Origin: Methanobacteriota archaeon
GTDB taxonomy: Archaea > Thermoplasmatota > Thermoplasmata > Methanomassiliicoccales > UBA472
Reading direction: 5' to 3'
Assembly: GCA_012729095.1 (NCBI GenBank)
Contig: JAAYDU010000061.1
Coordinates: forward strand, 11,779-75,778
DNA: 64,000 nucleotides
Positions 1,503 through 61,665 of the stretch are shown piece after piece. Position 1 is the first letter of the stretch. Every line of letters begins with the position of its first letter. A program made the translations under genes and the position numbers. A model generated the notes under the pieces. The model was given only the letters and a program-made list of their open reading frames with translations, had not been told where the DNA came from and made no database searches.

Positions 1503-1577
1503 TACTCTTGCCCGTTCCGGAACCCAAACCCTTTGAACCTATTCCATTCCGAGGGGCTTTGCTCTCCTCAACGCTTC

Positions 1578-2465: not shown

Positions 2466-2602
2466 TCCGGGCGTTCCAGTGTTGCGGTGAACAGGTACCC
2501 GGACATCAAGGTTGCGGAAAGGTCCCTGAAATTGTCGCCGTTAGCCCCGATGGAACCGAACAAAGCCTAATATCCTAGTCCTCAGGTTATAGGGGCGCTC
2601 CC

Positions 2603-4297: not shown

Positions 4298-4299
4298 GT

Positions 4300-5559
4300 C
4301 TACCAACATATCCCTTCGTAGTTATTGGTTTTTACCACGCCACGGCCATCGACCACCAGCATGCTGCCGTAGAGCGAGGGGTCGGAGAACTCCTGCCATT
4401 CCGTCAGGACCAGTGCCGAGTCGGCCCCCTTGAGGCATTCCTTTGCCGAGCCGCAGTAGGTGACCTGCGGGAACTCCCTCCGGAAGTTGTCCATGGCCTG
4501 CGGGTCGTACGCCCGGACGCGGGCGCCCTTGCGCAAAAGCTCCTCCACTACCGTCAGCGAGCTGGCTTCCCGTATGTCGTCCGTGCCCGGCTTGAAGGCG
4601 AGGCCTAGCACGGCCACCGTGCTTCCGTATACCTCGCCCCGCTTCTCCAGCAGCTCGATGACCCGCCGAGGCTGCCTTTCGTTCACTGAGAGCGTGGCGT
4701 CGAGCATGTCGGTGCGAACGCCGAGCGAGCGCGCCTGCGCCCTGATCGACCGGACGTCCTTGGGGAAGCAGGAGCCGCCGAAGCCGCAGCCGGCCTTCAG
4801 GAACAAAGGTCCCACGCGGGGGTCCATGCCCACTCCCTCGGCCACCTTGCGGAAGTCCATTCCCAGGGACTTGCATATGTTCCCCAGTTCGTTGACCAGT
4901 GATATCCGGGCGGCCAGGAAGGCATTGGAGGCCATCTTGATCATCTCCGCCGTGGAGATGTCGGTGCGCAGCACGGGCGCTTGCAGCCCCTTGTAAAGGG
5001 AGGCGACCTCCCCGTACGTCCTGTCGTCCGATGCCCCTATGACCACACGGTCCGGGTTCAGGAAGTCGTACACGGCCATGCCCTCCTTCAGGAACTCGGG
5101 GTTCATGGCAAGCCCCATGTCCTCCGCCCCCTTTCCGGACGTTCTCATCAGCAGCGGCCCCACGACGTCCCGGGTCGTGTTCGGGGGTACGGTGCTCTTC
5201 ACCACCACCGTGTGCCTCCCCCTCTTCCCGGCAAGCGCCTTCCCCAGGTCCTCTGACGCCTGCAAGAGGTACTTCAGGTCCAGAGACCCGTCCTCGCGGG
5301 ATGGCGTTCCCACGCAGAGGAAGGTCATGTCCGTACCCACCACCTTCGAATGGTCACTGGTGGCCTTGAACGACCCGGACGAGAGATGGCTGCGCATCAT
5401 ATCCTCCAGCCCCTCCTCGAATATAGGGGCGACGCCGTCGTTTATGCTGCGCACCTTTTCTTTGACGGTGTCCACGCAGACCACCTGGTGTCCCAGCTCG
5501 GCGAAACAGACCCCGGAGACGAGCCCGACATACCCAGTGCCGATTATGGATACTCTCAT
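4300..5559 (-). CDS. ugd: UDP-glucose/GDP-mannose dehydrogenase
   Basis: IIGTGYVG, NPEFLKEG, GFGGSCFPKD, GLAFKPGTDDIRE. Confidence 0.93.
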   Translation of the reverse strand: MRVSIIGTGYVGLVSGVCFAELGHQVVCVDTVKEKVRSINDGVAPIFEEGLEDMMRSHLSSGSFKATSDHSKVVGTDMTFLCVGTPSREDGSLDLKYLLQASEDLGKALAGKRGRHTVVVKSTVPPNTTRDVVGPLLMRTSGKGAEDMGLAMNPEFLKEGMAVYDFLNPDRVVIGASDDRTYGEVASLYKGLQAPVLRTDISTAEMIKMASNAFLAARISLVNELGNICKSLGMDFRKVAEGVGMDPRVGPLFLKAGCGFGGSCFPKDVRSIRAQARSLGVRTDMLDATLSVNERQPRRVIELLEKRGEVYGSTVAVLGLAFKPGTDDIREASSLTVVEELLRKGARVRAYDPQAMDNFRREFPQVTYCGSAKECLKGADSALVLTEWQEFSDPSLYGSMLVVDGRGVVKTNNYEGICW

Positions 5560-5680
5560 TTTGAAGACCTTTCACAACAATGGGATGGGATTATTTAACC
5601 TCTCATCACCCCCCGCCTTTTCGGGAACAAGGAAAAACATTACCTAATGGCATGGGGATTGCCCTACGACTGGTGTTCCG

Positions 5681-6886
5681 TTGCCATCCACTCCCCGGCC
5701 CTATCGCGTCCTGGTGATAACCCCGGACTATCCACCCCGCTATACCGGCGGCTGCGCGTTCAGTTGCCAGCTGTTGGTGGAAGGGCTGCGGTCCCGCGGC
5801 GTGCGCACCGACGTGTGGGCCTTCAACGGCGATCGTTCTCCCGGCGTAGGGAGCGAGATGGGCGATACCCTGTTCTTCAGAACGTCCCCCACCCTCGGCG
5901 GGCTGAACAGGACGGCCTACCGGGAGCTGCGGAGAAGGGCGCCCGACTGCGACATCATTCACGTGTACAACACCCAGCAGATACCCGCCGCGGTGAGGTA
6001 CGGCAAGAGGCACGGCAAGAAGGTAACGGCCACCCTGAACAACCTGGCGCCGGTGTGCACCAATCCCAGCATGTACGTGGAGGGGAAGTGCGCCAACTGC
6101 CGTCCCTTGGATTCGCTGTCCTGCGCCCTGCGCCGCCCCGGCCCTCTACGCATGCGGGCATTCATGCCCTATCACTGGATGCAGTTCATATGGCTGCACC
6201 GCCTGTCCCGGAGGGCGGACGGGTACATAGCACTGTCCGAAGCGACCAGGCAATGCTATCTGGACGCCGGTTACGATCGGTCCCTGATAAGACTGATACC
6301 TAACATGTACGACCCCGGGCAGATGACCGTGTCCTCTCCGAGGCCCGCTTCCAAGTGGAAAAAGGTCATACTCTACGTGGGAAGGCTGGAGGCTGAGAAG
6401 GGGTTGCAGGTCCTTATCAAGGCGTTCACCGACCTGGGCGAGGGAAACGTGCTGTATATAGTTGGGAAGGGCAACTACGAGCCACAGCTCAAGAGGCTGA
6501 CCAACGAGCTGGGGCTGGAGGGCAGGGTCATATTCACCGGTTTCATGGAAAAGGAGGAGATAGGCCGTTACTACGACATGGCCGACGTGTTCGTCCATCC
6601 CGCCCTTTGGCCGGAACCTTTCCCCCGGACCATATTGGAGGCGCTGTCCCACAGGTTGCCCATGCTGGTGTCCGACAGCGGGTCCTCGGCGGCCATACTG
6701 GGCAAGGCGGCACTTTCATTCTCGAACGGAGACGATAAGGACCTGGCCCTTAAGCTGCAACTTTTACTTGATGACGATGACCTGCGGCATCTCACCGTGA
6801 AGGCCGGGGAGGAGGTACTGCACCGTTTCCATCCGGAAACCGTCATGGCGCAGGTATTGGATTTCTACGATTCCCTCTTTTCCTGA
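5681..6886 (+). CDS. Glycosyltransferase family 4 (GT-B)
   Basis: YPP..GG N-terminus, YVGRLEAEKG, EPFPRTILEA (EX7E). Confidence 0.9.
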   Translation: MPSTPRPYRVLVITPDYPPRYTGGCAFSCQLLVEGLRSRGVRTDVWAFNGDRSPGVGSEMGDTLFFRTSPTLGGLNRTAYRELRRRAPDCDIIHVYNTQQIPAAVRYGKRHGKKVTATLNNLAPVCTNPSMYVEGKCANCRPLDSLSCALRRPGPLRMRAFMPYHWMQFIWLHRLSRRADGYIALSEATRQCYLDAGYDRSLIRLIPNMYDPGQMTVSSPRPASKWKKVILYVGRLEAEKGLQVLIKAFTDLGEGNVLYIVGKGNYEPQLKRLTNELGLEGRVIFTGFMEKEEIGRYYDMADVFVHPALWPEPFPRTILEALSHRLPMLVSDSGSSAAILGKAALSFSNGDDKDLALKLQLLLDDDDLRHLTVKAGEEVLHRFHPETVMAQVLDFYDSLFS

Positions 6887-8148
6887 GGGGGCGGCTCGGG
6901 GTTGTCCGGAGCGCTCGTTGCTTCCGCCGCTTCCCCGGTGTCGCTCTCTGCTTCCGCAACAGCTCCCTCGGTCCTATCGCCCTCTGGAACGCTCTTTTCT
7001 TCCGCCGCTTCCCCGGCATCGCTATCGGGGGTCACCGCGCTCTCCGGCCCGGCCGTCCCGCCATCGCCGGAACCCTCCTCCGGCATCACGCCTTGGACGG
7101 CGCTCCCGTCCCCGCCCTTGCGCTTCTTCCGGGGGGACCTCTTAAGCAGGTCCCTCTGGAACCCGCCCTCCTTCCATTCCGGGCGGTGGAGCAGTAGCTC
7201 CAGCACGTAGTACACGATCCACAGCGCCATTCCTGCCATGATCAGCAGGAGAAGCCCGGTGTAGTCCAGCCCTATGTCGATCTCCTCGATGGCATCGAAA
7301 ACGAACTTCCCTTCCAGCCCCAGCGTCCATATCCAGTACAGCGTGATCAGTACCATGACCAACGCCGGTATCAACCGGGACAGAGATCCGCGGGGATAGA
7401 AGCCCTTGAAGAAGGACAGGGCGGTAAGGGGAATGCCTATCATCAGCATGTGGGGCCCCAGCTCCTCTATGTTCTCAAGCATCGGCCCCATCTCCTCCAG
7501 GTCCAGGGAGGAGAACCCCGCCACCAGCACGAATATTATGGCCAGGGGAAGCACCACGAAGCTTATCAGGGTGCTTCTGGTCAGCTTCAAACCCTTGAAC
7601 AGGGAACCGTAGCGGGGCCGGAGGTCATGGTAGAAGCGATGGTCCTCCGGCCTCTCCAGCTCCTTTGCCGGGATCCTCCCGCCCCCCTCCATCCAGATGC
7701 GGCGATGGTCGTACATCTCGGCGAACTGCATCAGCACCGCCAGTATCGCAGTGAAGAAATAGAGGACGAATAGCAGGTCCAGGTCCAGCTCGAAGGCCTC
7801 CCTGGAGATTACATTCTCGGCGCGGCCGCCCAGCAACATCGAGTAGACGTATACGATCACCAGCACCGCAGCTGTCGTTGCGAAGGCAAATCGCGAGTAG
7901 CTCCCCATGGGGTACATGCCCTTGAGGAACCCGAGCGCCGCGAGGACCACGCCGAAGACCAGGACCAGCATTCTGATCTCGGCCAGAACGTCGACCACCC
8001 TCTGCGGCCCGTCCATCTCGGCGAGCATCATGGTCAGCACGGTGATGAGCACCAGCGGCAGCACCAGGTACTTTACGGCATGCACCGCGGCGGTCACGGC
8101 CCCCTTGCCCGGCGAGATGTAAGCCTTGCCGAACTCTCCAAGGTTCAA
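6865..8148 (-). CDS. Polytopic membrane protein with internal duplication and acidic disordered tail
   Basis: Two repeats carrying FxKGxYPxGSxSR; TTG start overlaps upstream TGA. Confidence 0.75.
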   Translation of the reverse strand: MNLGEFGKAYISPGKGAVTAAVHAVKYLVLPLVLITVLTMMLAEMDGPQRVVDVLAEIRMLVLVFGVVLAALGFLKGMYPMGSYSRFAFATTAAVLVIVYVYSMLLGGRAENVISREAFELDLDLLFVLYFFTAILAVLMQFAEMYDHRRIWMEGGGRIPAKELERPEDHRFYHDLRPRYGSLFKGLKLTRSTLISFVVLPLAIIFVLVAGFSSLDLEEMGPMLENIEELGPHMLMIGIPLTALSFFKGFYPRGSLSRLIPALVMVLITLYWIWTLGLEGKFVFDAIEEIDIGLDYTGLLLLIMAGMALWIVYYVLELLLHRPEWKEGGFQRDLLKRSPRKKRKGGDGSAVQGVMPEEGSGDGGTAGPESAVTPDSDAGEAAEEKSVPEGDRTEGAVAEAESDTGEAAEATSAPDNPEPPPQEKRES

Positions 8149-9329
8149 AGCCCCGCCCCCCACTGCTCGTTCTGCTGCTGCTCGTCGAACCAGGACCAGA
8201 TGTCATAGTGCAGGGTGACCCTGGCATTGACCAGGTGGTCACCGTTGTTAAGAAGGTCGTACGTCTCCGGGGTCAGCATTATCCAGGCCTCTTCCCAGAC
8301 CATGTCCCACATGTCCACAGAATAAGATGTCGAACCGTAGAAACCGGTGGAGTCCCAGTACTCTATGGATACACTGGCCTGCTGTCCCATGTATGCCGGG
8401 TCGGTCTGGAAGCTGTAGGGTATGACCACGTAGTACGAACCGCCCGTTTCCATCAGATACGAGCCGGGCATCATCAGCTGAAGGTTCGTGATCGGCTCTC
8501 CCGGCCCTCCGCCGCCTCCCACGCTCACGTCCCCCTCGGCATGGTTGGAGCAGTCCAGGAAGAACAGGGTGGTGCGCACGGTGGCGTTGGCGGTGCCGTT
8601 CGCCAGGCGGTCGTAGGCCTCCTGGGAAAGGGGTATCGAGGCCTCTTCGTTCACCTGCTGCGTCAGCTCCACGGTCTGGGTGGCGTTGCTGGTGTAGCCG
8701 TACTCGTCACTGTACTCGGTAACGGTCACCGCCTGCCGTCCATCCAGGAAGTCGTCGGCGTGGAAGGAGTACGGGACCATGACGAACCTCTCGCCCCCCT
8801 CCTCGCGGAGCTGGGCGTTCCATGATTCCACCTGCAGGTCGCTGATGAAGGCGTCCCACTCCATGTCGGTCATGACCTTCACCTCCATGCTGACCAGGTC
8901 CATCGCGTACTTGGCCGAGACCTGCAGGTCGAGGGCCATCTCCGTACCGTTGAAAATGATGTCGGAACGGTCCTGGCGGTCCATGTCCATGAGGTCCAGC
9001 TCCATCCCTATGGGGACCTCGGTGTCCCCGCCGGCCTTTATGTCCACCGGGTCGCTGGAACTTACCGCGATCACGTCCCCGTTGGCCTCCTTGAAGGTGA
9101 ACACCACCGTCATGTCGTTTATGTCGAAGAAACCGTCATTGGTGACCAGCAGGGGAACGGACATGGTCAGGGTGGTACCGGTGAACTCCCAGGAGCCTTC
9201 CTCCCCGGTGTCCATGTCCACTCCCAGGTCGCCTGTGATGAGGGGGAGCACGCTGAGGACGACTATCGCCGCCACGATCACTTTGAAGGCTATTATGCCC
9301 AACCTGGTGGCCAACAGGGGCAGCTTCAT
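8145..9329 (-). CDS. Membrane-anchored exported protein, LEA_2-like domain plus duplicated C-terminal domain
   Basis: N-terminal TM helix; VTNDGFFDINDM LEA-like motif; two ~100-aa repeats. Confidence 0.7.
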   Translation of the reverse strand: MKLPLLATRLGIIAFKVIVAAIVVLSVLPLITGDLGVDMDTGEEGSWEFTGTTLTMSVPLLVTNDGFFDINDMTVVFTFKEANGDVIAVSSSDPVDIKAGGDTEVPIGMELDLMDMDRQDRSDIIFNGTEMALDLQVSAKYAMDLVSMEVKVMTDMEWDAFISDLQVESWNAQLREEGGERFVMVPYSFHADDFLDGRQAVTVTEYSDEYGYTSNATQTVELTQQVNEEASIPLSQEAYDRLANGTANATVRTTLFFLDCSNHAEGDVSVGGGGGPGEPITNLQLMMPGSYLMETGGSYYVVIPYSFQTDPAYMGQQASVSIEYWDSTGFYGSTSYSVDMWDMVWEEAWIMLTPETYDLLNNGDHLVNARVTLHYDIWSWFDEQQQNEQWGAGL

Positions 9330-49374: not shown

Positions 49375-50327
49375 TACCGCTCGGCCAGCTTGGCGAGCAG
49401 GTCCGAATACGTACCTTTCCCCAAATCCATGGTCGCCATGCAGGCTATGGCCTCTCGCTTGCGCATGATCGGGACGGCAATGATTGGCAATCCCCGATAG
49501 GGGCCGCTGGTCGACAACCGGCGTACTATCGAACCCCTCTTCATGGATTCCTCCAGCATCGGTCCGGTGTAATGGGTGTCAATGACCTCCCCGTCCTCGC
49601 ATCGAACACCGGGGCGGTTCCTGCTGCGCATGGTGACCGGCAATCGTCCCAGCAGCTCGTGTATGGCCAGGGCCAAGCATCTCAGTTCATCCGCCTCAGT
49701 ATCGTGGCTAAGTATGCTCGTTCCCTCGCTCCAGCATCTCCTGGCCAAATTTCCCAAAGAAAGGGCGGCTGTGACGGCTCCCTTCTCCGCCGCGTCGTAG
49801 TTGAACGCTGAACCGATTATGATCACGTCCCCATCGTCCATCCGGAAGTAGTTCTTCAGGGGCGCTACCAGGGATTGGTCTGGATACTCCTCGTCCCCTG
49901 GAAACACTATGCGGGATTCTTTGACGACCAAGGTGGTGGCGCCTACCGCCCCGGCCCTGACCGCCTCGTCCCTCTGCTCGCAGCCCATGTTGACCCTGTC
50001 GGATGCGCATTTTACCAGCACCGCGCAGTTGAACTTGCCTAAGGTTAGATCGGAAAGGTCGATCTGCCTCACCTCCACGCCGGAGTTGTCCAACTTCCGT
50101 TTTCCGCGGTCGGTTATCGTGATGCCCAAGCGGGAGCTTTCGATGCACCCCTCCCTCATCATCTTGTCCAGGATCGTCCTGGTGCTTCCCTCCCCTATCT
50201 GCAGTACGCCGGCCAAGGCCTTCCTGCCTATAGGTCCTTCCTTGGCCACCACCTGATGCGCTTTCCATATATGATAGGCGTTGAACTTTGGCGTTGGACC
50301 CCCTGCAAAGTAGGAATTGAAGGACAT
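49371..50327 (-). CDS. HTH + DUF4443-like + DUF2111 fusion protein; probable transcription regulator
   Basis: GPIGRKALAGVLQIGEGSTRTIL HTH; EQRDEAVRAGAVGATTL; LAIHELLGRLPVTMRS...YTGPMLE...GPYRGLP. Confidence 0.8.
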   Translation of the reverse strand: MSFNSYFAGGPTPKFNAYHIWKAHQVVAKEGPIGRKALAGVLQIGEGSTRTILDKMMREGCIESSRLGITITDRGKRKLDNSGVEVRQIDLSDLTLGKFNCAVLVKCASDRVNMGCEQRDEAVRAGAVGATTLVVKESRIVFPGDEEYPDQSLVAPLKNYFRMDDGDVIIIGSAFNYDAAEKGAVTAALSLGNLARRCWSEGTSILSHDTEADELRCLALAIHELLGRLPVTMRSRNRPGVRCEDGEVIDTHYTGPMLEESMKRGSIVRRLSTSGPYRGLPIIAVPIMRKREAIACMATMDLGKGTYSDLLAKLAERY

Positions 50328-50340
50328 TGGCATTATGGGA

Positions 50341-50359
50341 TGGATATATAATCCATCCA
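50341..50359. promoter_or_regulatory. TGGATA-N7-CATCCA palindrome in the divergent HTH-DUF2111 / atwA promoter
   Basis: TGGATAtataatcCATCCA; spacer identical to the copy at 22161; extra CATCCA half-site at 50374. Confidence 0.72.
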
Positions 50360-50445
50360 TAAATATGTTACATCATCCAATTGTTAAAGCCAGGAGATTT
50401 GAACGGGGTAAGTATTATATCTGCAATAATCGTTGGCAAACAGGT

Positions 50446-52068
50446 ATGCCCGAGGGTTCAGAGGTTCTAATAATATTGGACAAGGTCTCCAAGAGCTTCA
50501 ATGGAAACCAAGTTCTGAAGGACATAACGACTACCGTCCGCACCGGCGAGGTCCTCGGGCTTATCGGCAAGAGCGGTAGCGGAAAGTCCGTCCTTATCAA
50601 CGCCATGCGCGGGAACGAGGAGTACAGGCCTGACTCCGGACGCATCATCTATCGCGTGAACCATTGCGAATCATGCGGATGGATCGACCTGCCCGCAGCT
50701 GGCGTAAAATGCCCAATGTGCGGAAAGGCGACCAAGATCATCGAGGTCGATTTCTGGGCCTTGAACGAAAGAGACCCCGTGCGCATGGCCATGCGCGGCC
50801 GCATCGCCATCATGCTGCAGAGGACCTTCGCCCTGTACGGTGACCTCAGCGTCATAGAGAACGTGTTCGAGGCCATGAAGGAGAAGTCCGACGAGAAGAA
50901 AGTGGAGAAGGCCATTAAATTGCTGGAGATGGTCAATATGACCCATCGTACCATGCACATCGCTCGCGACCTCTCCGGAGGCGAGAAGCAGAGGACCGTG
51001 CTCGCCAGACAACTTGCCCGCAAACCTCTGCTGTTCCTGGCCGACGAACCAACTGGTACCCTGGACCCGGAGACAGCGGACATCGTGCACAAAGCGCTGA
51101 TAAACGCGGTCAAGGACAGCGGCATGGCAATGGTGGTCACCTCGCACTGGCCAAAGGCCATAGAACTTCTTTCGGACCGGGCCATCTGGCTCGAGGAAGG
51201 GATGATCAAGGAGGAGGGAGAACCGAGCGAGATCACCAAGGCCTTCGACGTCAAGTTCGTCAAGACCAAGGAGATGGAGGTCAAGGTCGGTCTGCCGGTC
51301 ATCCGCGTGGATGGCGCAAAGAAATACTTCTATTCCATCGTCCGGGGCGTGGTCAAGGCCGTGGACGACGTAACATTGGAGGTCGGGGAAAAGGAGATAT
51401 TCGGTCTGATCGGTCTAAGCGGGGCCGGGAAGACCACCCTGTCCCGCATGATATCCGGGATCACCCCTGCCACGCACGGCGAGGTGCTGGTGCGTATCGG
51501 GGACGACTGGGTGAACATGTCCGATCTGGGCGAGGAGGGCAGAGGCCGCGCCACCCAGTACATCGGCATTATGCATCAAGAGAACGCACTTTATCCGTTC
51601 AACACCGTCCTGCAGAACCTCACGGTCTGCCTGGGCATGAAGCTGCCGCAGGAGCTCGCCAAGATGAAGGCCATTCAGGTGCTTCGCGGCGTGGGCTTCA
51701 CGGCCAAGGAGGTAGAGCGCATACTTTACGCCTACCCGGACTCCCTCAGCGTGGGAGAGAAACAGCGCATAGCCTTGGCGCGCACCATGATCATCGAGCC
51801 CCGCTTCGTGGTCCTTGACGAACCTACCGGCACAATGGACCCCATTACCCGTCAGGCGGTGGCCAAGTCCGTGCTGCACGCCCGCAAGGAACTGAACGAG
51901 ACATTCCTCATAGTCAGTCACGACATGGACTTCGTTCTAGCATGCTGCGACCGCGTCGCTCTGATGAGGGGCGGCAAGATGGTCGCCCTGGGGACCCCTC
52001 AGGAAGTGCTCAGGGACATGACCCAGGAAGATCTGGAAGGCGACGAGTCTGAGGTCTGCGAGGTCTAA
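50446..52068 (+). CDS. atwA: MCR system component A2 (ABC-type ATPase)
   Basis: Two Walker A motifs ([16 protein letters not shown]), CESC/CPMC zinc knuckle, [13 protein letters not shown]. Confidence 0.96.
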
Positions 52069-52070
52069 GC

Positions 52071-52676
52071 TTGAAAGATTCCATAGGCCGTAAGACGCGC
52101 TTCGTGGAATGCCGCGAGGCCCGGGGCATGGGCGTGGGCGGAAGCCTGGCCCAGAGGGCTACCATATCCGACAGCGGGCGCGACGTGGTCGCGGTGGCCA
52201 TGGGTCCCGGCAAGAGGCACATCACAAAACCCGTATGCGAGATCACATACGGGCTGAGGGAGGAGGGCATCGACACATCCGTGATCGTGATAACCGCAGG
52301 TTCTGGCGTTCCCTCCGACGCGGTGGACGTTTCCACCAGCTCCCTTTTCGGATTGGACCCCGTCGAGGTGGCCCGCATACAGCAGTTCAAGGTGGCGCTC
52401 ATTCACCTTGGTAACGTGCGAAACCACATCATATACAAGGCCCGCCTGATCCTGAGGAACGTGGACCTTCCGGCGGTCATCTGTTGCCAGGCCCCGGTGG
52501 ACTTCGAGGACTTCGCCCGGATCGGCTGCAAGACCCGTCAGGTTATGCCCAGCGAGGGTAACATCGGGACCAAGGGGACCATAATGGAGATAATCACCGG
52601 CGTGGTCCGTGGCACCACCGTGAGCCAGGTGAAGCTCGACGAGATCGTGGCCAAGGTCAAGCGCACCATGCCTTAA
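52071..52676 (+). CDS. mcrC: MCR operon protein C
   Basis: [40 protein letters not shown]. Confidence 0.95.
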
Positions 52677-53236
52677 ATGTCGTAACCAATTATGTGCGTC
52701 CAGCAGTTAGTGTTCCCGTAGCCGAGACGTTCGCGTATGTAATCATCGGACACCGTTGATATGCTGGCGCTGACCAGTCTTTTCAGTCCGGGTATGCCTT
52801 CCAATGGGGGAAAGGTCAAGGGAGGTATCAGGAAGTACGGCTCGCCGACTATGTCCACGTCGCCGTACAGAACGAAGTCCTCGCTGAGCATGTAGGCGTT
52901 GTCCCTGAGCTTCACCCCTTCCCGCTTTCCTTCCGGCAGGTACTCCCCTATTATCTGGCCTTTCTGGTCCACCATGTGCACCGCCTGGTTCTGGGAATGG
53001 AGCATGTCCACTTCGTGCTGGGCGACCACCACCAACACCTCCTGCCTGGTGAGCACGTCCCAGACGCCCATGTTGACGAAGGCCATGAGGCCTCCGACCG
53101 CGCCGTTGCCCTCGGCATACCGCTCACGCCGCTCCAATTCCTGGCGGAATTCTTGGTCGAGGAACACCAGGGTCTCTATCCCCTCCATCGCCAGTATCCT
53201 CTCCTCCACGGACTGCCGGATCTCTTTCCTGTCCAC
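52673..53236 (-). CDS. Uncharacterised protein, paralog B
   Basis: 187-aa ORF aligning by eye with 46389-46931. Confidence 0.8.
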
Positions 53237-53390
53237 GTCAGCCCCAGGGGTTTCCGCCTATTCATAATTTGCACCCTTTTTCCCAGGCGGGACCAGGTTA
53301 ACCATCGGTAAGCGTCCAAGAACATTGGCCAGATTGAACAAAACAGGAATAACCTTATAATCGGTTCTCTACATCCATGAGGGAGACAAG

Positions 53391-54998
53391 ATGAAAGCTG
53401 TCGTCAACGGTAAGGAAAAGGATCTGCCCGATGGCGCGTCGGTGGCTCAGGCCATCGAAGGGGAGCCCTACGTGCCGGGCAGCTCGGTGGCTTTGATCCG
53501 CCCCATGGATGCCCAGCGTAAGTTGACCAACGAATACATGGTCAAGACCCCCCGTGGCTGCTTCATCATAGAGCTTAATGGAAGCAAGTACTCCGAGGCC
53601 TGGAAGAGGTTGTACAACGACGTGATAGGCAAGAACCTGCGCTGGCAGACAAGCCGCTTGCACGCCTTCGGGTCCTTTCCCACTCAATTCGAGAAGTCCC
53701 GCGGTACGACCGACTACAAACGCTACGACTGCTTCTTCGCACTTGGCGGTTACGATACGGACACCACCTATCTGATGGTCGCACGGGTGGACATGAGCGA
53801 TGACCTTGGCCTGCAGGACGCGGTGTTCGGAAGGGTTACCAGGGGCCGACATATACTGGACCTCATGAGAGAAGGGGACATCATCGAGCACATAGAACCG
53901 GTGGTTCTGCGCATGACCTCCCAGGACGCGTTCTCGGTGACCGACCTGGACGTTCCCGTAGAGGACGGCATGTTGATCGAGACCTTCATCGGCGTGAAGC
54001 TCGATGAAAGGTCTCCGCTGTGCTGCGAGCACTTCCTCGTGGTCACCAGCGAGGGGAGCCTGCCCATAGACGAGAAGGGGTTCAGCTACACCGCCAGCGA
54101 GGCCAACATGGACACCTCCCTGGGACAGGAGCACAGCGAGGTCCGGCACCCGGACTCGGTCACAGTGCGTCACAAAGGCCATCAGGCCGGAAAGATATAC
54201 TTCTACAACCAGGTCCGCCAGCTCAACCGCTCGCACAACCTGGTCGGTAAGGTTACCAACGGGCACAACCTGGTGCATCTCGTCCCGCTCAAGGGCAGGG
54301 TGCTGGTCCGATCCGATCCCCTGAGGATCATGACCATAGGGAAGACCCAGGCCCAGGCCCAGGAATTTCTGGAATCCATTGGTAAGGTCCAGAAGCGCAC
54401 GGGGGACACGGCGGACGATGCCATTGTGGTTGAGCAGGAACCGGAGATGACCATTTACGCCTACAAGGAGAAGGAGGTCGAGACCATGGGCGTCCCCAAG
54501 GACAAGGTGTTCCCGTTGACCATGGACCCCGAGGCCTCTCCCTGGACCGTCCGTTACTTCCGCAAGGTCACCGGGCTTGACCACAAGCCCGTGGGAACCA
54601 TGCGGGTGCATTTCACCTTCGAGGGCATGCCGATGATAACATTCGAGGGAAACCCGAAGCTGGCCGCGGACCTTTACCCCGAAAAAACGTTCGAGGGGCA
54701 CTGCTACCGTGGGGATGTGGCCATCACCAACATGTCAAGGCCGCAGCGCGGATTGATGGGAATACGCCTGGAGGACAGCGACGAGTTCGGTTCTACCGGG
54801 GAGGAGCCCCATGGGACCAATCTGCTCGGGCGCTTCATCGGAGACCTGACCGCCATGATGTCCAGTATATCCGAAGGGGACATCGTCTACGTGCGCAGGG
54901 CCACTCCCGAGGAGGCCGCGTCAAAGGCGGTACAGAAACCGATCAAGAAGAAGGCGAACGGGAAGAACGCCAAGAGGCCCAAGGCCAAGGGGGACTGA
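53391..54998 (+). CDS. mmp3: Methanogenesis marker protein 3
   Basis: KTPRG, AFGSF, VVEQEP, YFRKVTGL...PVG, TNMSR, EFGSTGE. Confidence 0.92.
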   Translation: MKAVVNGKEKDLPDGASVAQAIEGEPYVPGSSVALIRPMDAQRKLTNEYMVKTPRGCFIIELNGSKYSEAWKRLYNDVIGKNLRWQTSRLHAFGSFPTQFEKSRGTTDYKRYDCFFALGGYDTDTTYLMVARVDMSDDLGLQDAVFGRVTRGRHILDLMREGDIIEHIEPVVLRMTSQDAFSVTDLDVPVEDGMLIETFIGVKLDERSPLCCEHFLVVTSEGSLPIDEKGFSYTASEANMDTSLGQEHSEVRHPDSVTVRHKGHQAGKIYFYNQVRQLNRSHNLVGKVTNGHNLVHLVPLKGRVLVRSDPLRIMTIGKTQAQAQEFLESIGKVQKRTGDTADDAIVVEQEPEMTIYAYKEKEVETMGVPKDKVFPLTMDPEASPWTVRYFRKVTGLDHKPVGTMRVHFTFEGMPMITFEGNPKLAADLYPEKTFEGHCYRGDVAITNMSRPQRGLMGIRLEDSDEFGSTGEEPHGTNLLGRFIGDLTAMMSSISEGDIVYVRRATPEEAASKAVQKPIKKKANGKNAKRPKAKGD

Positions 54999-54999
54999 G

Positions 55000-55425
55000 A
55001 TGGATATCAAGACAGAGACCAGGATAGTGTTCATAGCTCCGACCTCCGACCTAACCCCTGACCGCATCGCCCGCCTAGTGCACAATCTGGGCCACGAGGT
55101 CTCCGTGAAGGAGACCTGCTATGGGGTGGTGCTGCAAGGCCCCAAGGACGCCGTCAAACTTACCCTGGACGAGGTCCGCAAGATGGACCCGAACCGCATC
55201 TACTCCAAGATACGGGCGTTCCCCATGGGCGACCTCCGCCGCTGCCGGGCGCATCACGGCTCCCGCCCCGGTTTCGCCCAGCTGGAAAAGGAATGGAAGG
55301 ACCTGTGTCTGGTGGAACAGGGCCTCATCTGCTTGGAAAAGGGCGAGGTTCCGCCCACGCCCAGCAAACGTCAGAGAATCCCGGTCAACGAACTTAAGAA
55401 GCTCATAGACGAGGTGCCACAATGA
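55000..55425 (+). CDS. mmp6: Methanogenesis marker protein 6
   Basis: VKETCYG, FPMGDLRRCRA, RPGF. Confidence 0.9.
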   Translation: MDIKTETRIVFIAPTSDLTPDRIARLVHNLGHEVSVKETCYGVVLQGPKDAVKLTLDEVRKMDPNRIYSKIRAFPMGDLRRCRAHHGSRPGFAQLEKEWKDLCLVEQGLICLEKGEVPPTPSKRQRIPVNELKKLIDEVPQ

Positions 55426-55856
55426 AGATATTCCTAATGCCGCCGAACAGCCTGATCCTATTCGATCTGGTGGAGAGGTTCGGTCACGAACCGCTGAGCC
55501 TGATGAAGGCCCTCCGCGACCGCGTCACGTCCAACGAGATCGAGGCACCGCCCTTGAACGTCACTCTGGACGATGTCAAGCTGGGCCTGAAGTATGCCGG
55601 GATCGAGATCCCTTCCGGCATACGGGGGAGATTGGCCGTGTACGGGCCGCTCATAGACGAGGCCGAGGCCGCGATATTCATGGAGGACGCGCCCTACAGC
55701 TTCGGGTGCGTGGGGTGCCAGAGGACCAATGAGCTCGCCAAGCTCCTGGTCCGCAAACGCAAGGTGCCCATCCTTTCCCTGGACTACCCGGCCAACGAGG
55801 AAGAGGCCAAGGACATGGTCTACAAGGTGAAGAGTTTCCTGGAGGGTTTGAAATGA
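55422..55856 (+). CDS. mmp5: Methanogenesis marker protein 5
   Basis: [37 protein letters not shown]. Confidence 0.92.
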
Positions 55857-57076
55857 TCAAGATAGCCCAGCTTTCCTGCGGGACGGAATACAGTGCCGTG
55901 CAGGGGGAGATCGAGAACGCCGCGGAGACCGTGGGGGCCAAGATGGTCTACCCGGACGTGGACATGAACAAGATAGACCGGGCCGTGGAGGAGTTCGGGT
56001 TCAACCCCGCAAGTCCCCAGCTCAAGCTGATGATCGCCCGGGCCATGGAACTTGCCGACAAGAACTATGACGCTGACGCGATATTCATCGCCACCTGCTT
56101 CCGTTGCGCCGAGGCGGCACTGGTGCGCACCGAGCTGCGCAAGTTCGTGCAGGAAAAGGTGAGGCTTCCAGTTGTCACGTATTCCTTCACGGAGAGGACC
56201 AAGGCCGCCCAGCTCCTGACGAGGATGGAGGCGCTGGTGACCATAGTGGAAAGGAAGGAACTGCTGGCCAGGGAGAGGCAGGTAGGACTGACCGCCGGAC
56301 TGGACTCCGGTTCCTCCACAACCAAGGCGGTCATCATGCGCGACAACGTGATAATCGGCAAGTACTGGCTTCCGACGGGGGACGTGTACTCGTCCGCCGA
56401 GACCGCCCTCACCCATGCTTTGGAGGAGGCCGGGGTGAAGCTGGAGGAGCTGGAGGGCATAGGCACCACCGGCTACGGGCGTTTCACGCTTGGCAAGAAG
56501 TTCAAAGCCAAGCTGGTGCAGGAAGAGCTTACGGTCAACTCCAAGGGAGCCGTCTGGCTGGCCGACAGGCAGAAGGGCGAGGCCACCATAATCGACATCG
56601 GAGGAATGGACAACAAAGCCATCACCGTTCGTGACGGTATACCGGACAACTTCACCATGGGCGGCATTTGTGCCGGCGCCTCCGGAAGGTTCCTGGAGAT
56701 GACAGCCAAGCGCCTCAAGATAGAGATAACCGAGCTGGGGGAGCTCGCCGATCAAGGCATGCACGGAAAGGTGAAGATGAACTCCTACTGCTCCGTGTTC
56801 GGAATACAGGACCTGGTCACGTCTCTGGCCGCCGGGAACACTCTCGCGGACGTCGCTTCCGCGGCGTGTCACAGCGTGGCCGAGCAGGTCTACGAGCAGC
56901 AGCTGCAGGAGATCGAGGTCCGCCAGCCGATCATTCAGGTCGGCGGCACGTCCTTGATATCCGGGCTTGTAACGGCCATGGAGCACACCCTTGGGCAACG
57001 TCCCATCGTGCCCAATGACTCTCAGTACATCGGGGCCGTCGGCGCGGCGTTGCTGGTATCAGGCCTGCTGGGGTGA
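55853..57076 (+). CDS. mmp15: Methanogenesis marker protein 15 (activase-type ATPase)
   Basis: [44 protein letters not shown]. Confidence 0.93.
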
Positions 57077-57080
57077 GAGC

Positions 57081-57653
57081 ATGGTCGAATTCGAGCTGGA
57101 GGGCACCGAGCAATACGCCCTTGAATCGTATCAATGGCTGTTGCAGCGCATACTGATGGACATGGGGATAAGCACCATGGTGGAGCGGGTACGCTTGGTG
57201 ATCCGCCCGGACCAGACCCTTTTCATCATATCCATGCGCATCAAGCAGTCCGGCAGCAAGCGTCCGCTGTACGACATTGCCGACACGGAGTCGCAGGAAG
57301 GCGGGACCTTCATCACCATCAAGGACGAGTCCTACGCCCCGAGGCTTCTGTCCAATCTCTGGCATAAGTACGGGAGGGAACGCGTTCAGCAGCTCACCCG
57401 CCTTGAGATATTCGTGGAGGGCGCCCCGGTCGAGGAGATCACGGACATCAGGCTAGATCCCGAGGAGGAGGTTCGCTCCCAGCTCCTCGATGCCATGTGG
57501 AGGCTGTTGCCCGAAGGACTGAAGGTGAGGAACGAATACTTCAACGACGATGTTATGACCATCGTTGCCACGGAGCACGGCATGACCGTGGACTTCATCG
57601 CGGAGGCGCAGAACGTGCACAGAAACATGATCAAGGGGCCGGAGGAGGACTGA
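57081..57653 (+). CDS. mmp17: Methanogenesis marker protein 17
   Basis: IKDESYAPRLL...YG...Q, RLLPEGLKVR; position between markers 15 and 7. Confidence 0.85.
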   Translation: MVEFELEGTEQYALESYQWLLQRILMDMGISTMVERVRLVIRPDQTLFIISMRIKQSGSKRPLYDIADTESQEGGTFITIKDESYAPRLLSNLWHKYGRERVQQLTRLEIFVEGAPVEEITDIRLDPEEEVRSQLLDAMWRLLPEGLKVRNEYFNDDVMTIVATEHGMTVDFIAEAQNVHRNMIKGPEED

Positions 57654-58570
57654 TGTACGAGGTACTGATGTTCGATGGCGGGGTCCACAAGGTGGATGAA
57701 CTGCTGGACCTCATTGAGGACGTGGGAGGTTTCATACTCCAGCGCACCCAGATACAGGTTATGATAACCCTGACCATAGCCATCCCGGGCGAGGACCGCC
57801 CGCTCATAGAGAAGAAGGCGGCGGAGCTCGGGGGCAAGATCATAGAGGTTCCGTTGGCCGGAACGGAGATAGCGGTCATAGGCCCGACCCTGGGAAGGCA
57901 TCACATGCCGCATCCGATATGCGATATCGCCGAGCACCTGCGCAGGTACGGGGCGATAACCATAGTCATGGGACTGGCCCGCGGGCGAGGAAGGAAGACC
58001 TGTCAGATCTCGGCGGCGGAGAAGGCCATCATCGAGGAGTACGACGCGGCCATATTCATGCTGGGCAACTTCACCGAATGCGTAACTCACGAAAAGATCG
58101 ACCTCTACAAGGACATACAGATCCCGGTGGTCACGGTAATAGGCCCGGAACTTGAATCGCTCCCGCACTGCGAAGCGCTGGTCTGCGGTGTCGGCCGCAA
58201 GGTGGAACGCATGCGGCGCTCGGAGGAGATCGCCAAGCTGGAGGAGATCGCGGACCGGGTGAAGGAGGTCATCGACAAGCGTCGCGTGGAGATCGACGAG
58301 GACCCCCTTTTCGTGCATCCTTCCGAGATCAAGGATGCCTTGGAGGACATGGAGGCGGTCCAGGTCTGCCTGCGCCCCGCGCCCATAGTCTTGCACGTTG
58401 ACGGTCTTCGGGTCAAGATACCTTACAAGAAGCACGTCAAGGAGCTTGAGGAGCTGGAGGTTTACGGCCACAAGCTGAAGGACATAGCCATCATTTCCGA
58501 CTGCCGGCTTGGCGACAGCACCATGATCAAGATCAAGACCAAGGCCGAGGTCGAGGGCAAGGTACGCTGA
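57653..58570 (+). CDS. mmp7: Methanogenesis marker protein 7
   Basis: MYEVLMFDGGVHK, PLAGTEIAV, HHMPHPICDIAE, GLARG, DGLRVK. Confidence 0.92.
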   Translation: MYEVLMFDGGVHKVDELLDLIEDVGGFILQRTQIQVMITLTIAIPGEDRPLIEKKAAELGGKIIEVPLAGTEIAVIGPTLGRHHMPHPICDIAEHLRRYGAITIVMGLARGRGRKTCQISAAEKAIIEEYDAAIFMLGNFTECVTHEKIDLYKDIQIPVVTVIGPELESLPHCEALVCGVGRKVERMRRSEEIAKLEEIADRVKEVIDKRRVEIDEDPLFVHPSEIKDALEDMEAVQVCLRPAPIVLHVDGLRVKIPYKKHVKELEELEVYGHKLKDIAIISDCRLGDSTMIKIKTKAEVEGKVR

Positions 58571-58577
58571 GCGGCAT

Positions 58578-59018
58578 ATGCGCTCCTCGCCGGGTGCCTA
58601 CGTACTGCTGGTCTTTCTTCCCGACCCCCTCACCGTTCAGGTAGGGGCCCTGGGGAGGCTGGACCTCCCGGCCGGGCACTATCTGTACTGCGGCTCGGCC
58701 CAGGCAGGGCTGCTGCCCCGCCTGGCAAGGCACATGCGTCCTGATAAGAAAGTTCACTGGCACATAGATTCTCTGACGTCCGAGGGGCAGGTCATCGGCG
58801 CGCTCACCTTCGAGGGGGGCAAGGAAACGGAATGCCGCCTGGCCCGTTTCCTATCCTATGTCCCTTTCGTGCTTCCCGCGGCCAAGGGCTTCGGCTCCTC
58901 CGATTGCCACTGCCACACGCATCTCTTTTACGTTGGAGAGGACACCCAACTGTCGTTCGTACTGAACGCCCTGCTCGGCTCCTTCCAAGGTCGCGAGCTG
59001 AACGGAGAATCTATTTAA
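58578..59018 (+). CDS. GIY-YIG / DUF123 (Uri superfamily) nuclease
   Basis: GAYVL, GHYLYCGSA, HWHID, EC, GFGSSDCHCHTHL. Confidence 0.9.
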   Translation: MRSSPGAYVLLVFLPDPLTVQVGALGRLDLPAGHYLYCGSAQAGLLPRLARHMRPDKKVHWHIDSLTSEGQVIGALTFEGGKETECRLARFLSYVPFVLPAAKGFGSSDCHCHTHLFYVGEDTQLSFVLNALLGSFQGRELNGESI

Positions 59019-59050
59019 CCGGCGTCGAACGTTATTATCCCGGTAGATGC

Positions 59051-59275
59051 ATGTTCGGTTCCAGGAGGTCCAAGCTGGAGGCTAGGATTAAGCAGCTGAA
59101 CGCTTTGCGCGCCGAATATCGGGCCGAGGTTGAAGAGGCGGAACGCCTTCACAAGCGAAGGGAGATGGACGAGGAAGAACTGCAACGGATACGGCGGAGA
59201 TGCCTGGCGAAGATGGACGACATCGCCGAGAAGGTCCGGGCGGCCCGCAAGGAATTGGACTCGACAAGGGAGTGA
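59051..59275 (+). CDS. Small coiled-coil hypothetical protein
   Basis: 74-aa charged heptad-like ORF MFGSRRSKLEARIKQL... Confidence 0.65.
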   Translation: MFGSRRSKLEARIKQLNALRAEYRAEVEEAERLHKRREMDEEELQRIRRRCLAKMDDIAEKVRAARKELDSTRE

Positions 59276-59346
59276 AAGGCGTTTTAATTTTCCAGTTCAG
59301 GCCATAAAAACAATTTATATATAGTCAGGAAGACAAAGTATTATGT

Positions 59347-59573
59347 TGCCCGTGGAATGGAGAGGGTAGGACCTGCGGATGCATCTCTGCCCGCCTTCAT
59401 CGGCCAATACGGTCATCCGTGCGCTAACGCGATGGAAATTCGCGAGCGACGGTTCCCCCCGCGCCCTACGTGCGATCGGCGGGAGATGAAGGGGTGGTCG
59501 CCCGAGGAACTTCTCCATTTTGAGGAATGGGTCGGACCGAAGGTCGCCTTCCTCCTCCCCTCCGCCCGGGCAC
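59347..59573 (+). ncRNA. Candidate structured ncRNA 1 (~225 nt)
   Basis: TATA TTTATATA at 59314; closing helix TGCCCG/CGGGCA; CCTTCATC/GATGAAGG; internal hairpins; pyrimidine tail. Confidence 0.55.
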
Positions 59574-59691
59574 TTCTATCCCTTATCATCTCATGTTCCT
59601 TTCTTAATTTATTATTATATTTATAATAATATTCTGGCTAGTGTATTAATCATGCAAAACTATAAGTATTATAGGAAACAATAGTAATAAT

Positions 59692-59968
59692 TGCCCGAGT
59701 CGGAAAGGCTGTGGGGAAACCAGGATGGATCCAGCATGGTTTGAGGACCATGTCCATAGGAATAGGTCCTATCCGCGCGCTCCTCCTGGAGCGGGTCCGA
59801 CCACACGCTTCCTGACTTAAGACGGGAAAGTGGTGAGACGGATGGTGATCCAACCCCTTCGGGGATCGGAAAGCCAGGAAGGACGTCATCGAAATGGCGA
59901 ATTCCCCATCTGCAGATGCGTGTTCGTCAAGTAGGGACGAAGTACCTTCAAGCACCGATCTCGGGCAC
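59692..59968 (+). ncRNA. Candidate structured ncRNA 2 (~275 nt)
   Basis: BRE/TATA-like CAAAACTATAAG at 59655; closing helix TGCCCGAG-TCGG/CCGA-CTCGGGCA; at least seven hairpins including a cUUCGg loop. Confidence 0.6.
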
Positions 59969-60087
59969 CCTTATCCATACGTATATTTCTAAAATTCTCA
60001 TTTTTCGTGTATGGCTCAGGAATAGATTTAAAATACTTCACAGACTTCAGGGTATAATCTCATTTATAACCTAACAGAGGTCTTCAC

Positions 60088-61665
60088 ATGTCAGCTGAGG
60101 AAGAGAACGTGAGCAGGGCAATGGCCCCCGTGGTGGCCAAGCTGCAAGATGCGATCGGAAGGGAGAACGTAAGGACCAGCAAGATGGAGAGGCTTCTGTA
60201 CAGCCATGATCTCGCGCCGTTGCCGAGCATCGCACAGATAGCCTTCAAGAACCTTCCGGACATTGTTGTCCGGCCTCACACCACCGAGGACGTTGTAAAG
60301 ATCGTCAAGATCGCCGCTGAGGAGAAGATACCGATCACCCCGCGCGGGGCCTCCACTTGGGGCCTGGGCGGTTCCACCCCGGTTTTCGGAGGTATACTGA
60401 TCGACATGTCAGGCGGCATGAACAAGATCATCAAGATCGACAAGGAGAACCTCTGCGTCAAGGCGCAGGCCGGCATAACCTGGAAGGAGGTCTACGACGC
60501 CTGTCTCGAGCAGGGGCTTCTGCTCGGAGGATACCCGAGTTCCTTCCCCTCCGCCACCCTTGGCGGCTGGATATCCGTGAACGGTGTCGGGATCGGTTCC
60601 ATGAAGTACGGTACCAGCGGCGACCTGGTCCGGAACATGGAGGTCGTCATGCCCAACGGCACTTTGGTGGAGACCGGTTATGACCTCATCGTAGACAACG
60701 AGACCGGATACAACCTCAACAGGTTGATAGTGGGTGCCGAGGGGACCCTGGCACACATCTGCACCGTCACCTTCAAGCTGGAGCCCGCCCCGGAGCTCAT
60801 GAAGTCGCTCACCTACGCCTTCCCTACGCTCAGGGAGGCAGGTCAGCCTCTCATGGAGATATGCCGCTCCCGCGTCAGGCCGCTGCACATCGGATTCAGC
60901 GATCCCAACCACTTCGAGCTCCTTCGCAAGGCGGGCAAGCACGCCATCGAGGACGGCGCCGTGCTCAACGTACAGCTGGAAGGCGACAAGGAGATCGTGG
61001 ACTGGGAGGAGAAGAAGATCGACGAGATCATGACCAAGCACGGCGGAAAGAGGCTGGCGGACGATGTGGCCTCCCACGAGTGGGATGAGCGCTGCTACGA
61101 GTACCGCTGCCGCGAGGTCGGCATAGGAAGCATACCTGGAGAGGCGGTGCTCCCCCTCAACAAGTTCGCGGAGACCGTGGACTATTGCTACGACCTGCTC
61201 AAGGATCTGAAGCTGACCGGCGCCATAATCGGATCCATGGTAGACCGTAACACGGTCATGTTCATGCCCTACTACCTGTTCGACCCGGACGACCTCCCGG
61301 AGATGACCGCCTTCGGCTTCAATGCAAAGTTCGCCAACTACTCGCTGACGATCGGCGGCAGGCCGCTGGGCTTCGGGGCCTTCTTCGCCTCCAACCTGGA
61401 TCCCATACGCGGCACCGGCGCGAAGTACATCAGGGACATCAAGAAGCTGATCGACCCGAACGACATCATGAACCCCGGGAAGCTGACCGGCACCACCCTG
61501 CGCTACGGCATCAAGATACCGCCCGCGCTGTTCAACGTGGGAATGGGGGCCATGGGCATCATCAAGAAGATGATCCCCACCGAGGACGTGGTCGCCCAGC
61601 GTCAGGAAGCCTACGCCCAGGAGCGCGCCAACAAGGAGCGCGACGGAAGGCACGGAAGCCACTGA
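60088..61665 (+). CDS. FAD-binding oxidoreductase (GlcD/D-lactate dehydrogenase-like)
   Basis: PDIVVRP, ITPRGAST, ATLGG, KYG, GYNL...GAEGTL, DPNDIMNPGK. Confidence 0.9.
   Translation: MSAEEENVSRAMAPVVAKLQDAIGRENVRTSKMERLLYSHDLAPLPSIAQIAFKNLPDIVVRPHTTEDVVKIVKIAAEEKIPITPRGASTWGLGGSTPVFGGILIDMSGGMNKIIKIDKENLCVKAQAGITWKEVYDACLEQGLLLGGYPSSFPSATLGGWISVNGVGIGSMKYGTSGDLVRNMEVVMPNGTLVETGYDLIVDNETGYNLNRLIVGAEGTLAHICTVTFKLEPAPELMKSLTYAFPTLREAGQPLMEICRSRVRPLHIGFSDPNHFELLRKAGKHAIEDGAVLNVQLEGDKEIVDWEEKKIDEIMTKHGGKRLADDVASHEWDERCYEYRCREVGIGSIPGEAVLPLNKFAETVDYCYDLLKDLKLTGAIIGSMVDRNTVMFMPYYLFDPDDLPEMTAFGFNAKFANYSLTIGGRPLGFGAFFASNLDPIRGTGAKYIRDIKKLIDPNDIMNPGKLTGTTLRYGIKIPPALFNVGMGAMGIIKKMIPTEDVVAQRQEAYAQERANKERDGRHGSH

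Follow-up and report, generated by a model that had tools for sequence, protein, structure and literature searches.

Large, covarying and abundant RNAs have previously proved to be ribozymes, scaffolds of ribonucleoproteins (RNPs) or global regulators; OLE RNA has partner proteins, and the archaeal RNase P and signal recognition particle (SRP) RNAs are the stable RNAs of RNPs. To our knowledge, few large structured archaeal RNAs have been described beyond ribosomal RNA, transfer RNA (tRNA), RNase P RNA, SRP RNA and guide small RNAs. The locus described here lies in a 64,000-nucleotide (nt) stretch of DNA, hereafter the window, from an archaeon of the order Methanomassiliicoccales (contig JAAYDU010000061.1), whose genome assembly is 1.68 Mb in size, 99.4% complete and 60% G+C. 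Coordinates are window positions on the + strand unless stated, and f1 to f7 denote families of the order, f1 being that of the window. In the gap between the stop codon of a small open reading frame (ORF) at 59275 and the start of a FAD-oxidase gene at 60088 there are two G+C-rich blocks, with A+T-rich DNA between. As set out below, these blocks are very probably two stand-alone genes for stable, abundant and highly structured non-coding RNAs (ncRNAs), paralogs within an undescribed, order-restricted superfamily that may serve as trans-acting RNP scaffolds. The blocks and their ends are as follows.

59348-59572, + strand: type-1 RNA (block 1), ~225 nt; the block ends are TGCCCG from 59347 and CGGGCA up to 59572
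59693-59967, + strand: type-2 RNA (block 2), ~275 nt; the block extends from 59692 to 59967
59346-59352 and 59691-59697: TTGCCCG
59567-59573 and 59962-59968: CGGGCAC
59580-59587 and 59968-59975: CCCTTATC

A first-pass annotation had read this gap as two tandem, separately promoted, structured ncRNAs with shared termini, and all of the strings quoted in it were found in place. The element that it reported behind each block, CCCTTATC, is present at both sites but is not conserved in congeners.

BLASTN recovered the whole tandem, at 73-89% identity, in 15 of 16 further congeneric genomes, the one miss being an 81%-complete assembly. In the genus alignment, near-invariant segments are interrupted by variable hairpins in which a change on one side is matched by a change on the other. 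For type 2, the RNAalifold consensus of 14 genus sequences comprises 86 pairs, and 96.4% of cells are paired, compared with 34-48% when the 3' partners are slid. Compensatory pairs number 18 of 86, as against 8.4+/-1.7 in shuffled alignments (0 of 500 reach 18) and 4-9 in slid ones. Across 27 family members, in an alignment that was fitted to the covariance model and hence leans towards the model's pairs, 90.1% of cells are paired (35-46% when slid) and 66 of the 86 pairs are compensatory (51.8+/-2.6 shuffled, 22-36 slid). The type-1 consensus, from 15 genus sequences, comprises 53 pairs with 95.5% of cells paired (43-56% slid) and 10 compensatory pairs (3.9+/-1.4 shuffled, 0 of 500 reaching 10; 1-7 slid), although on one measure, that of further pair types, type 1 does not rise above its shuffles (326/500). 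At 8 type-2 positions G-U is more frequent than any other pair; the other strand would have A-C there, and the + strand is therefore taken to be the RNA. Covarying homologues are found at three levels: within the genus, within the family and in four families of the order.

Three covariance models were used: R1 for type 2, R2 for type 1 and R3 for a 70-position core of type 1. The elements of the type-2 RNA are as follows.

59692-59703, + strand: 5' strand of the terminal helix, paired with 59955-59967
59713-59720: GGGGAAAC, with GGG (59714-16) paired to CCU (59945-47) and GAA opposite the AGUA of CGAAGUACC (59938-59946)
59734-59753: hexaloop hairpin GCAUGGU-UUGAGG-ACCAUGU, with YUGNGG at 59741-59746
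59766-59884: central variable domain, closed by GUCCUAUC / GGAAGGAC
59778-59793, 59795-59843 and 59849-59870: inner hairpins of the central domain
59885-59938: 3' arm, GUCAUC/GGGAC and then a long stem tipped by CUGCAG (59910-59915)

Across the family, four of the first eight pairs of the type-2 terminal helix change on both sides, and the conserved helix carries a bulge in its 3' strand (GUAA/UAAG in most genera). The GGG/CCU pairs of GGGGAAAC are invariant in the genus, and GGGRA is present in 27/27 and GA[AC][GCA]UACC in 22/27 family members. GGGGAAAC opposite CGAAGUACC fits the loop E / sarcin-ricin consensus and is read as a putative module of this kind. YUGNGG was located by script near position 50 in 26 of the 27 type-2 RNAs; in the other, L064, the script chose a different string at position 42, and the hairpin is visible in the aligned rows. 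A 7-bp covarying stem stands beside the hexaloop in 22/27. Most of the type-2 compensatory changes fall in the central domain, where six of the eight pairs of helix 11 have changed on both sides. As regards the pairings first proposed for block 2, the terminal helix, CATGGT/ACCATG, CGCTCC/GGAGCG, TTCCTG/CGGGAA and CCC-UUCG-GGG are retained in the consensus, but TGGGGAA/TTCCCCA, ATAGGA/TCCTAT, CGTCAT/ATGGCG and TTCGTC/GACGAA lie outside the conserved fold, which has covarying alternatives instead (GGG 59714-16/CCU 59945-47, GUCCU/AGGAC, GUCAUC/GGGAC and UGGCG.../...CGUCA).

The type-1 RNA comprises the following elements.

59348-59371, + strand: 5' strand of the terminal helix, paired with 59553-59571
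59394-59492: variable inner domain, closed by CCUUCAUC (59394-59401) / GAUGAAGG (59485-59492)
59488-59560, + strand: conserved core, matched by R3 at 52.2 bits
59496-59502 and 59542-59548: outer stem of the core, GGUCGCC / GGUCGCC
59515-59530: core hairpin CCAUU-UUGAGG-AAUGG, with the hexaloop at 59520-59525

In the type-1 terminal helix a C-G pair is replaced by U-A in 2 of 15 congeners, and in other families the sequence of the helix differs and its pairing is kept (GCCUGAAG/CUUCAGGC in f2, GCAAGAG/CUCUUGC in f3). Helix 3, which closes the inner domain, has eight pairs with 96.7% of cells paired and one compensatory pair; the interior of this domain does not align between genera. The core is conserved much further afield: in alignment A4 (22 sequences from four families) compensatory change is seen at 8 of 14 pairs, and the hairpin CAUU-UUGNGG-AAUG is present in all 22 sequences, within a core closed by GGYCGCC/GGYCRCY. 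No second copy of this hairpin motif occurs in the genome when up to one mismatch is allowed. Both the terminal helix and the block-1 pairing CCTTCATC/GATGAAGG that had been proposed at the outset are kept in the consensus.

Some of these features could be expected of a functional RNA that works free of protein, either as a ribozyme or by self-assembly, for example as a type-2 dimer joined through its palindromic CUGCAG loop. Indeed, CUGCAG (CTGCAG in the DNA) is self-complementary, forms the tip of a hairpin and is retained in 26 of the 27 type-2 RNAs while the stem below it covaries; moreover, many junction nucleotides are invariant and a partner protein was not found. However, the consensus closes CUGCAG as a C-G pair round a 4-nt loop, which would make it a poor kissing partner, the type-1 RNA is without the element, and the type-1 interior is too variable for a fixed catalytic core. 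A protein-free RNA is thus regarded as unlikely.

Within the window, types 1 and 2 have only short ends in common. In other genera both types share the first ~17 and last ~15 nt together with the YUGNGG hexaloop hairpin, in which the loop is closed by U-A in both, and it is the interiors that differ; in most of these genera both start with GCCCGGAGGCGGAAUGC and finish with CGUAAnCUCCGGGC. The first-pass impression that what the blocks share is their architecture and ends, and not their sequence, therefore holds in other genera. Judged by these common elements, type 1 and type 2 are paralogs within one previously undescribed RNA superfamily. Type 1 looks ancestral, because only type-1-like RNAs were seen at the locus in f2, f3 and f5, and type 2 looks like a duplicate born in the window's family, some genera of which then appear to have lost type 1. 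When a complement covarying with the variable base of the hexaloop was sought inside 15 type-1 RNAs, no consistent partner emerged, which points to a partner outside the RNA. Two other readings of the hexaloop hairpin were considered and rejected: a K-turn/K-loop, as the base expected to be A varies, and a Shine-Dalgarno-like element, as neither the variable base nor an AUG is kept. The AUUUUG of type 1 resembles an Sm site, but type 2 has fewer U residues.

No match at gathering score was returned by Rfam 15 (4227 families) for the whole window, and with permissive filters the interval 59250-60090 gave only three chance-level matches on the other strand (E 3.1-5.5). Six loci from other genera likewise had no match at gathering score, and seven loci from five families had none at E<=1. 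The models for OLE, raiA, ROOL, GOLLD, Hgc and 6S did not reach gathering score in the window, and those for archaeal RNase P RNA (RF00373) and archaeal SRP RNA (RF01857) did not match 59250-60090 even at E<=10. The genome's own RNase P RNA (C12:11163-11457, 205.5 bits) and SRP RNA (C22:4109-4420, 167.8 bits) are encoded on other contigs, and ARAGORN placed the single tRNA of the window far from the blocks. The failure of the earlier annotation to match the blocks to RNase P, SRP, tRNA or a riboswitch is borne out by these searches.

It might be supposed that the blocks belong to a known class (RNase P, SRP, Y RNA, 6S-like or others) from which they have diverged strongly, since they resemble such RNAs in size, in the closed terminal helix and in a promoter of the stable-RNA type, and since paralogs in tandem whose ends are conserved and whose interiors vary are reminiscent of the Y and vault RNA genes. 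Yet no Rfam model, those for Y RNA included, scores on the + strand at E<=10 over 59250-60090 or at E<=1 at the other loci, the RNase P and SRP RNAs are accounted for elsewhere in the genome, and Ro60/TROVE (PF05731) gave 0 matches in the 99.4%-complete genome, a control search being positive in 2 of 14 control genomes. Membership of a known class is consequently considered very improbable. A literature search found no paper describing these RNAs; the ncRNAs listed in the relevant portion of a 2014 comparative-genomics paper on the order are Rfam-predicted (PMC4153887). As there is neither an Rfam family nor a describing paper, the RNA family is rated as new, and the proposal that it is an undescribed family of multibranched archaeal RNAs is supported by the Rfam result together with the covarying homologues and the metatranscriptome transcripts described below.

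The possibility that the blocks are DNA-level elements, such as a miniature inverted-repeat transposable element (MITE) or mobile repeat, or else small protein genes, draws on the short inverted ends TGCCCG/CGGGCA and on overlapping ORFs of 89-101 aa. Each block, however, is single-copy, the next best genome matches having E values of 0.18 and 0.41, and it occupies a fixed syntenic place across the order. The locus has no match in phage records, and the sole plasmid match is 81 nt long and falls in the A+T-rich spacer. Pairs of TGCCCG...CGGGCA spaced by 150-330 nt occur many times in the genome, among the matches listed mostly within coding sequence. Six-letter ends alone are therefore uninformative in a genome of this base composition, their recurrence being no more than chance. 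The MITE alternative, which had been entertained as the less likely one, is excluded by the single copy in each genome and its constant syntenic position. Among the ORFs that overlap block 2, the longest (59650-59955, minus strand, 101 aa) is interrupted by 1-3 stops in 6 of 14 congeners and by frame shifts in others, and over block 1 the longest open stretch switches strand and frame from congener to congener. Since the reading frames are broken in congeners and the substitutions in stems are compensatory, a DNA element or protein gene is hardly credible. To judge from these stops and frame shifts, the ORFs overlapping the blocks are not genes, in keeping with the initial statement that the gap holds no credible protein gene.

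The following signals flank the two RNAs.

59314-59321: type-1 TATA box, TTTATATA, -34 to -27 from G59348, conserved in the genus
59662-59669: type-2 TATA box, TATAAGTA, -31 to -24 from G59693
59573-59661: type-1 3' spacer, T-rich and A+T-rich, a putative terminator by the oligo-T rule
59968-60006: type-2 3' flank, T-rich, with TTTTT at 60002-60006, a likely terminator
60027-60035: TATA box of the FAD-oxidase gene, TTTAAAATA, conserved in the loci read, ~55 nt before the ATG

TATA geometry at this spacing marks archaeal promoters, and oligo-T marks archaeal termination. In 14 type-1 units from four families the A+T maximum lies around -31 to -24, in 17 type-2 units around -32 to -26, and in the 31 units together (five families) around -31 to -24 relative to the first G; the TATA-like boxes of these units include TTTATATA, CTTAAATA and CTATAAATA. 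The RNase P and SRP RNA genes of the genome have the same TATA-to-start spacing, 23-26 nt. In the units examined, the last C or A is followed by T-rich DNA. The presence of a TATA box at a fixed distance, about 24-31 nt, before each RNA agrees with the description of the RNAs as separately promoted. In the spacer between the RNAs, AATAATATTCTGGC (59626-59639) hardly changes within the genus, unlike the A+T-rich DNA around it, and may serve the type-2 promoter as a regulator site.

Sixteen sequencing runs from 13 studies contain part of the stretch, and 15 of these runs are recorded as RNA; those that hold the locus are anaerobic-digester, bioreactor and sludge metatranscriptomes. Contigs were placed from four runs, one from each of four studies, and cover both RNAs, transcripts of which are thus present in metatranscriptomes. 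The intervals 59605-59671, in the spacer, and 58801-59001 have no contig cover, which counts as evidence neither way. Those identical to the window span 59395-59572 and 59397-59510 on type 1, and 59701-59964 and 59709-59885 on type 2. Contig depth is 1051-8790 over the RNAs and 3-11 over the FAD-oxidase gene in the same runs, which hints that the RNAs are highly abundant; it is a hint only because contig depth, a poor measure of expression, cannot rank genes. Adapter-like letters follow directly after 59570 and 59572 (in two studies) and after 59964. These letters are presumably the start of an Illumina adapter, and the sequenced molecules would therefore have ended at the foot of the terminal helix. 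In two studies the contigs starting at 59701 are each preceded by unrelated letters; the inner starts (59701 and 59395-59397) could reflect an assembly break, a reverse-transcription stop or 5' processing.

These data also bear on the idea that the RNAs are cis-acting leaders, or riboswitch-like regulators, of the downstream FAD-oxidase gene. Such a role would fit their position, as in every RNA-bearing family the RNAs lie directly upstream of this gene and in the same orientation, whatever precedes them. Against it, both RNAs come with a TATA box and a T-rich 3' flank of their own, a separate conserved TTTAAAATA box precedes the oxidase gene, and the adapter-like letters place the RNA ends at the terminal helix. 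Moreover, the oxidase contigs stop at 60071-60103 in 4/4 runs and none bridges to an RNA, which is a weak hint in the same direction. One to three paralogs in a row would be unusual for a leader, and in f4 and f7 the oxidase gene occurs with no RNA found at the locus. A cis-acting leader is accordingly judged improbable.

Within the window's family, R1 matched 39 of the 47 genomes over its full length, with 7 of the 8 genera represented, and R2 identified type 1 beside type 2 in several other genera. Clusters range from one to three paralogs depending on the genus: the window's genus has type 1 and type 2, two genera have type 2', type 1 and type 2, two have type 2 alone, and in one genome the order of the types is reversed. 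The order of the locus is DUF123, small coiled-coil ORF, RNA(s) and FAD oxidase, and the FAD-oxidase gene immediately follows the RNAs in 15 of the 17 loci tested, the other two being cut short by contig ends. Other families were reached by following the FAD-oxidase orthologue. At this locus f2 and f3 each have one type-1-like RNA and f5 has two. With R3, positive genomes numbered 33/46 in f1, 1/1 in f2, 3/4 in f3 and 9/10 in f5, with exactly one match in each, and R3 gave no match in f4 (0/1), f6 (0/24) and f7 (0/64) or in 133 genomes of other orders of the class. With default filters R1 matched none of 104 genomes outside f1, which understates its range, since with filters off weak full-length matches appeared in 6 of 6 f5 loci (E 9e-10 to 1.5e-3). 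A pattern for the 17-nt 5' end was also followed up: among the matches listed, 80 loci were rescanned with R1 and only L123 and L147 scored, chance matches to the pattern lying, among those listed, in G+C-rich bacteria. L123 and L147 are metagenome-assembled genomes and, like L134 (scored by R2), are public loci of the order Methanomassiliicoccales. In the genomes searched, the superfamily is by these models restricted to some Methanomassiliicoccales families; f4, f6 and f7 are described as families in which it was not found, rather than from which it is absent, because the genomes are a sample and the models were trained on positives.

The mechanism that we favour, as a tentative best guess that is well short of probable, is that of a scaffold. 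Transcription would start at the G of GCCCG, and the transcript would end at the base of the terminal helix or be trimmed back to it. In trans, the RNA would act as an RNP scaffold, one common partner reading the YUGNGG hexaloop and the terminal helix, which in most genera is GCCCGGAGGCGGAAUGC...CGUAAnCUCCGGGC. These two elements are taken as the partner's sites because they alone are common to both types and to all families, and the variable interior may be a spacer, or lineage-specific, and so free to drift. A broader formulation, in which the RNAs belong as subunits to an archaeal machine yet to be discovered (a new RNP, or a self-assembling RNA in which type 2 pairs with itself through CUGCAG), is held with similar reserve.

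A number of observations weigh against the picture of stand-alone, trans-acting RNAs. That they always lie beside the FAD-oxidase gene would still allow a cis role. Folding energies of single sequences are better than those of shuffles, but modestly so (z -2.13 for block 1 and -3.31 for block 2), and for this reason the structural case rests on covariation. On type 2 the high-depth contigs start 8-9 nt inside the predicted RNA, and on type 1 they start 47 nt inside it; contigs carry no information on strand or level. The absence from f4, f6 and f7 depends on the genomes sampled and on models trained on positive families. The small coiled-coil ORF is missing, with the query used, from f2 and f3, which carry the RNA; DUF123 and the FAD oxidase occur also in families without the RNA; and no partner protein was found.

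The neighbouring genes are as follows.

59051-59275, + strand: small coiled-coil ORF of 74 aa, the upstream neighbour in f1 and given for context only
60088-61665: FAD-oxidase gene (Pfam FAD_binding_4 and FAD-oxidase_C)

A 147-aa mechanical ORF (58832-59275) overlaps the DUF123 gene, and other genera place the real start of the small ORF at the ATG at 59051. The 74-aa ORF is found in 44 of 46 f1 and 9 of 10 f5 genomes and, with this query, in none of the genomes of f2, f3, f4, f6 or f7; it matches no Pfam family, and its protein-atlas neighbours are Thermoplasmatota hypothetical proteins only. Directly upstream, at 50317-59018, lies a methanogenesis-marker / Mcr-activation cluster (ABC ATPase, MCR_C-like, DUF2102, DUF2112, BcrAD/BadFG ATPase, DUF2113 and McrC) followed by the DUF123 (GIY-YIG-like) gene. 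The Mcr-activation cluster adjoins the RNA locus in this genus only. By reading of the sequence, moaA-like radical-SAM and mobB-like genes lie between the small ORF and the RNAs in f5 (L108:1256-3270), and a mobB-like gene directly precedes the RNA in f2 and f3.

In genus g13 of f6 (L240:1169-1345) a G+C-rich block of ~175 nt stands between DUF123 and the FAD oxidase, with ends GCCUGGGA...UCCCGGGC. It looks unrelated and is without the hexaloop motif, is 78-97% conserved in 4/4 genomes of the genus, was not found by BLASTN in 20 other f6 genomes, and has a fold with five compensatory pairs among four sequences. It may be a third, shorter relative.

Three of the 16 congener assemblies are broken or carry Ns inside the locus, namely G004 (two contig ends), G005 (Ns) and G013 (a contig end), which hold loci L031, L038, L039 and L042. 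In a fourth, G009, the locus begins 720 nt from a contig start. Such breaks could reflect strain variation in the variable hairpins.

Overall, the RNAs of this family, 225-300 nt long, can be set beside several known systems. They are like archaeal RNase P RNA and SRP (7S) RNA in size class, closing terminal helix and TATA-to-start spacing; they differ from both in that the respective models score nothing on the blocks and in being confined to part of one order. With the archaeal HgcC/E/F/G and SscA-type ncRNAs they share the character of orphan, G+C-rich structured islands in A+T-rich DNA, although those families are in Rfam and without a match here, and belong to other lineages and sizes. 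With the Y and vault RNAs of eukaryotes, and the Y-like RNAs of bacteria, they share clustered paralogs with their own promoters, a conserved terminal helix and a variable interior. This combination of conserved helix and variable interior suggests a protein that reads the helix; in contrast to Y and vault RNAs, however, they are two to three times longer, have no Rfam match and are not accompanied by a Ro60/TROVE gene in the genome searched.

The bacterial RNAs OLE, raiA, ROOL and GOLLD offer a further parallel. Those too are a few hundred nucleotides long, ornate and multi-branched, covarying, lineage-restricted, highly expressed and stand-alone, with a function not evident from context. The present RNAs differ from them in being archaeal, in forming tandems of one to three paralogs and in having no Rfam-model match, and from OLE in having no associated protein gene known. 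The alignments A1-A4 and the models R1-R3 are sufficient as the seed of an Rfam family and for probe design, and the RNAs provide both a handle on the biology of a poorly tractable methanogen group and a marker separating families within the order. If the broader formulation given above, that of an undiscovered machine, is correct, they would constitute a new class of functional RNA comparable in rank to OLE, ROOL or GOLLD, one specific to a single branch of the hydrogen-dependent methylotrophic methanogens and ranking among the cell's most abundant transcripts.

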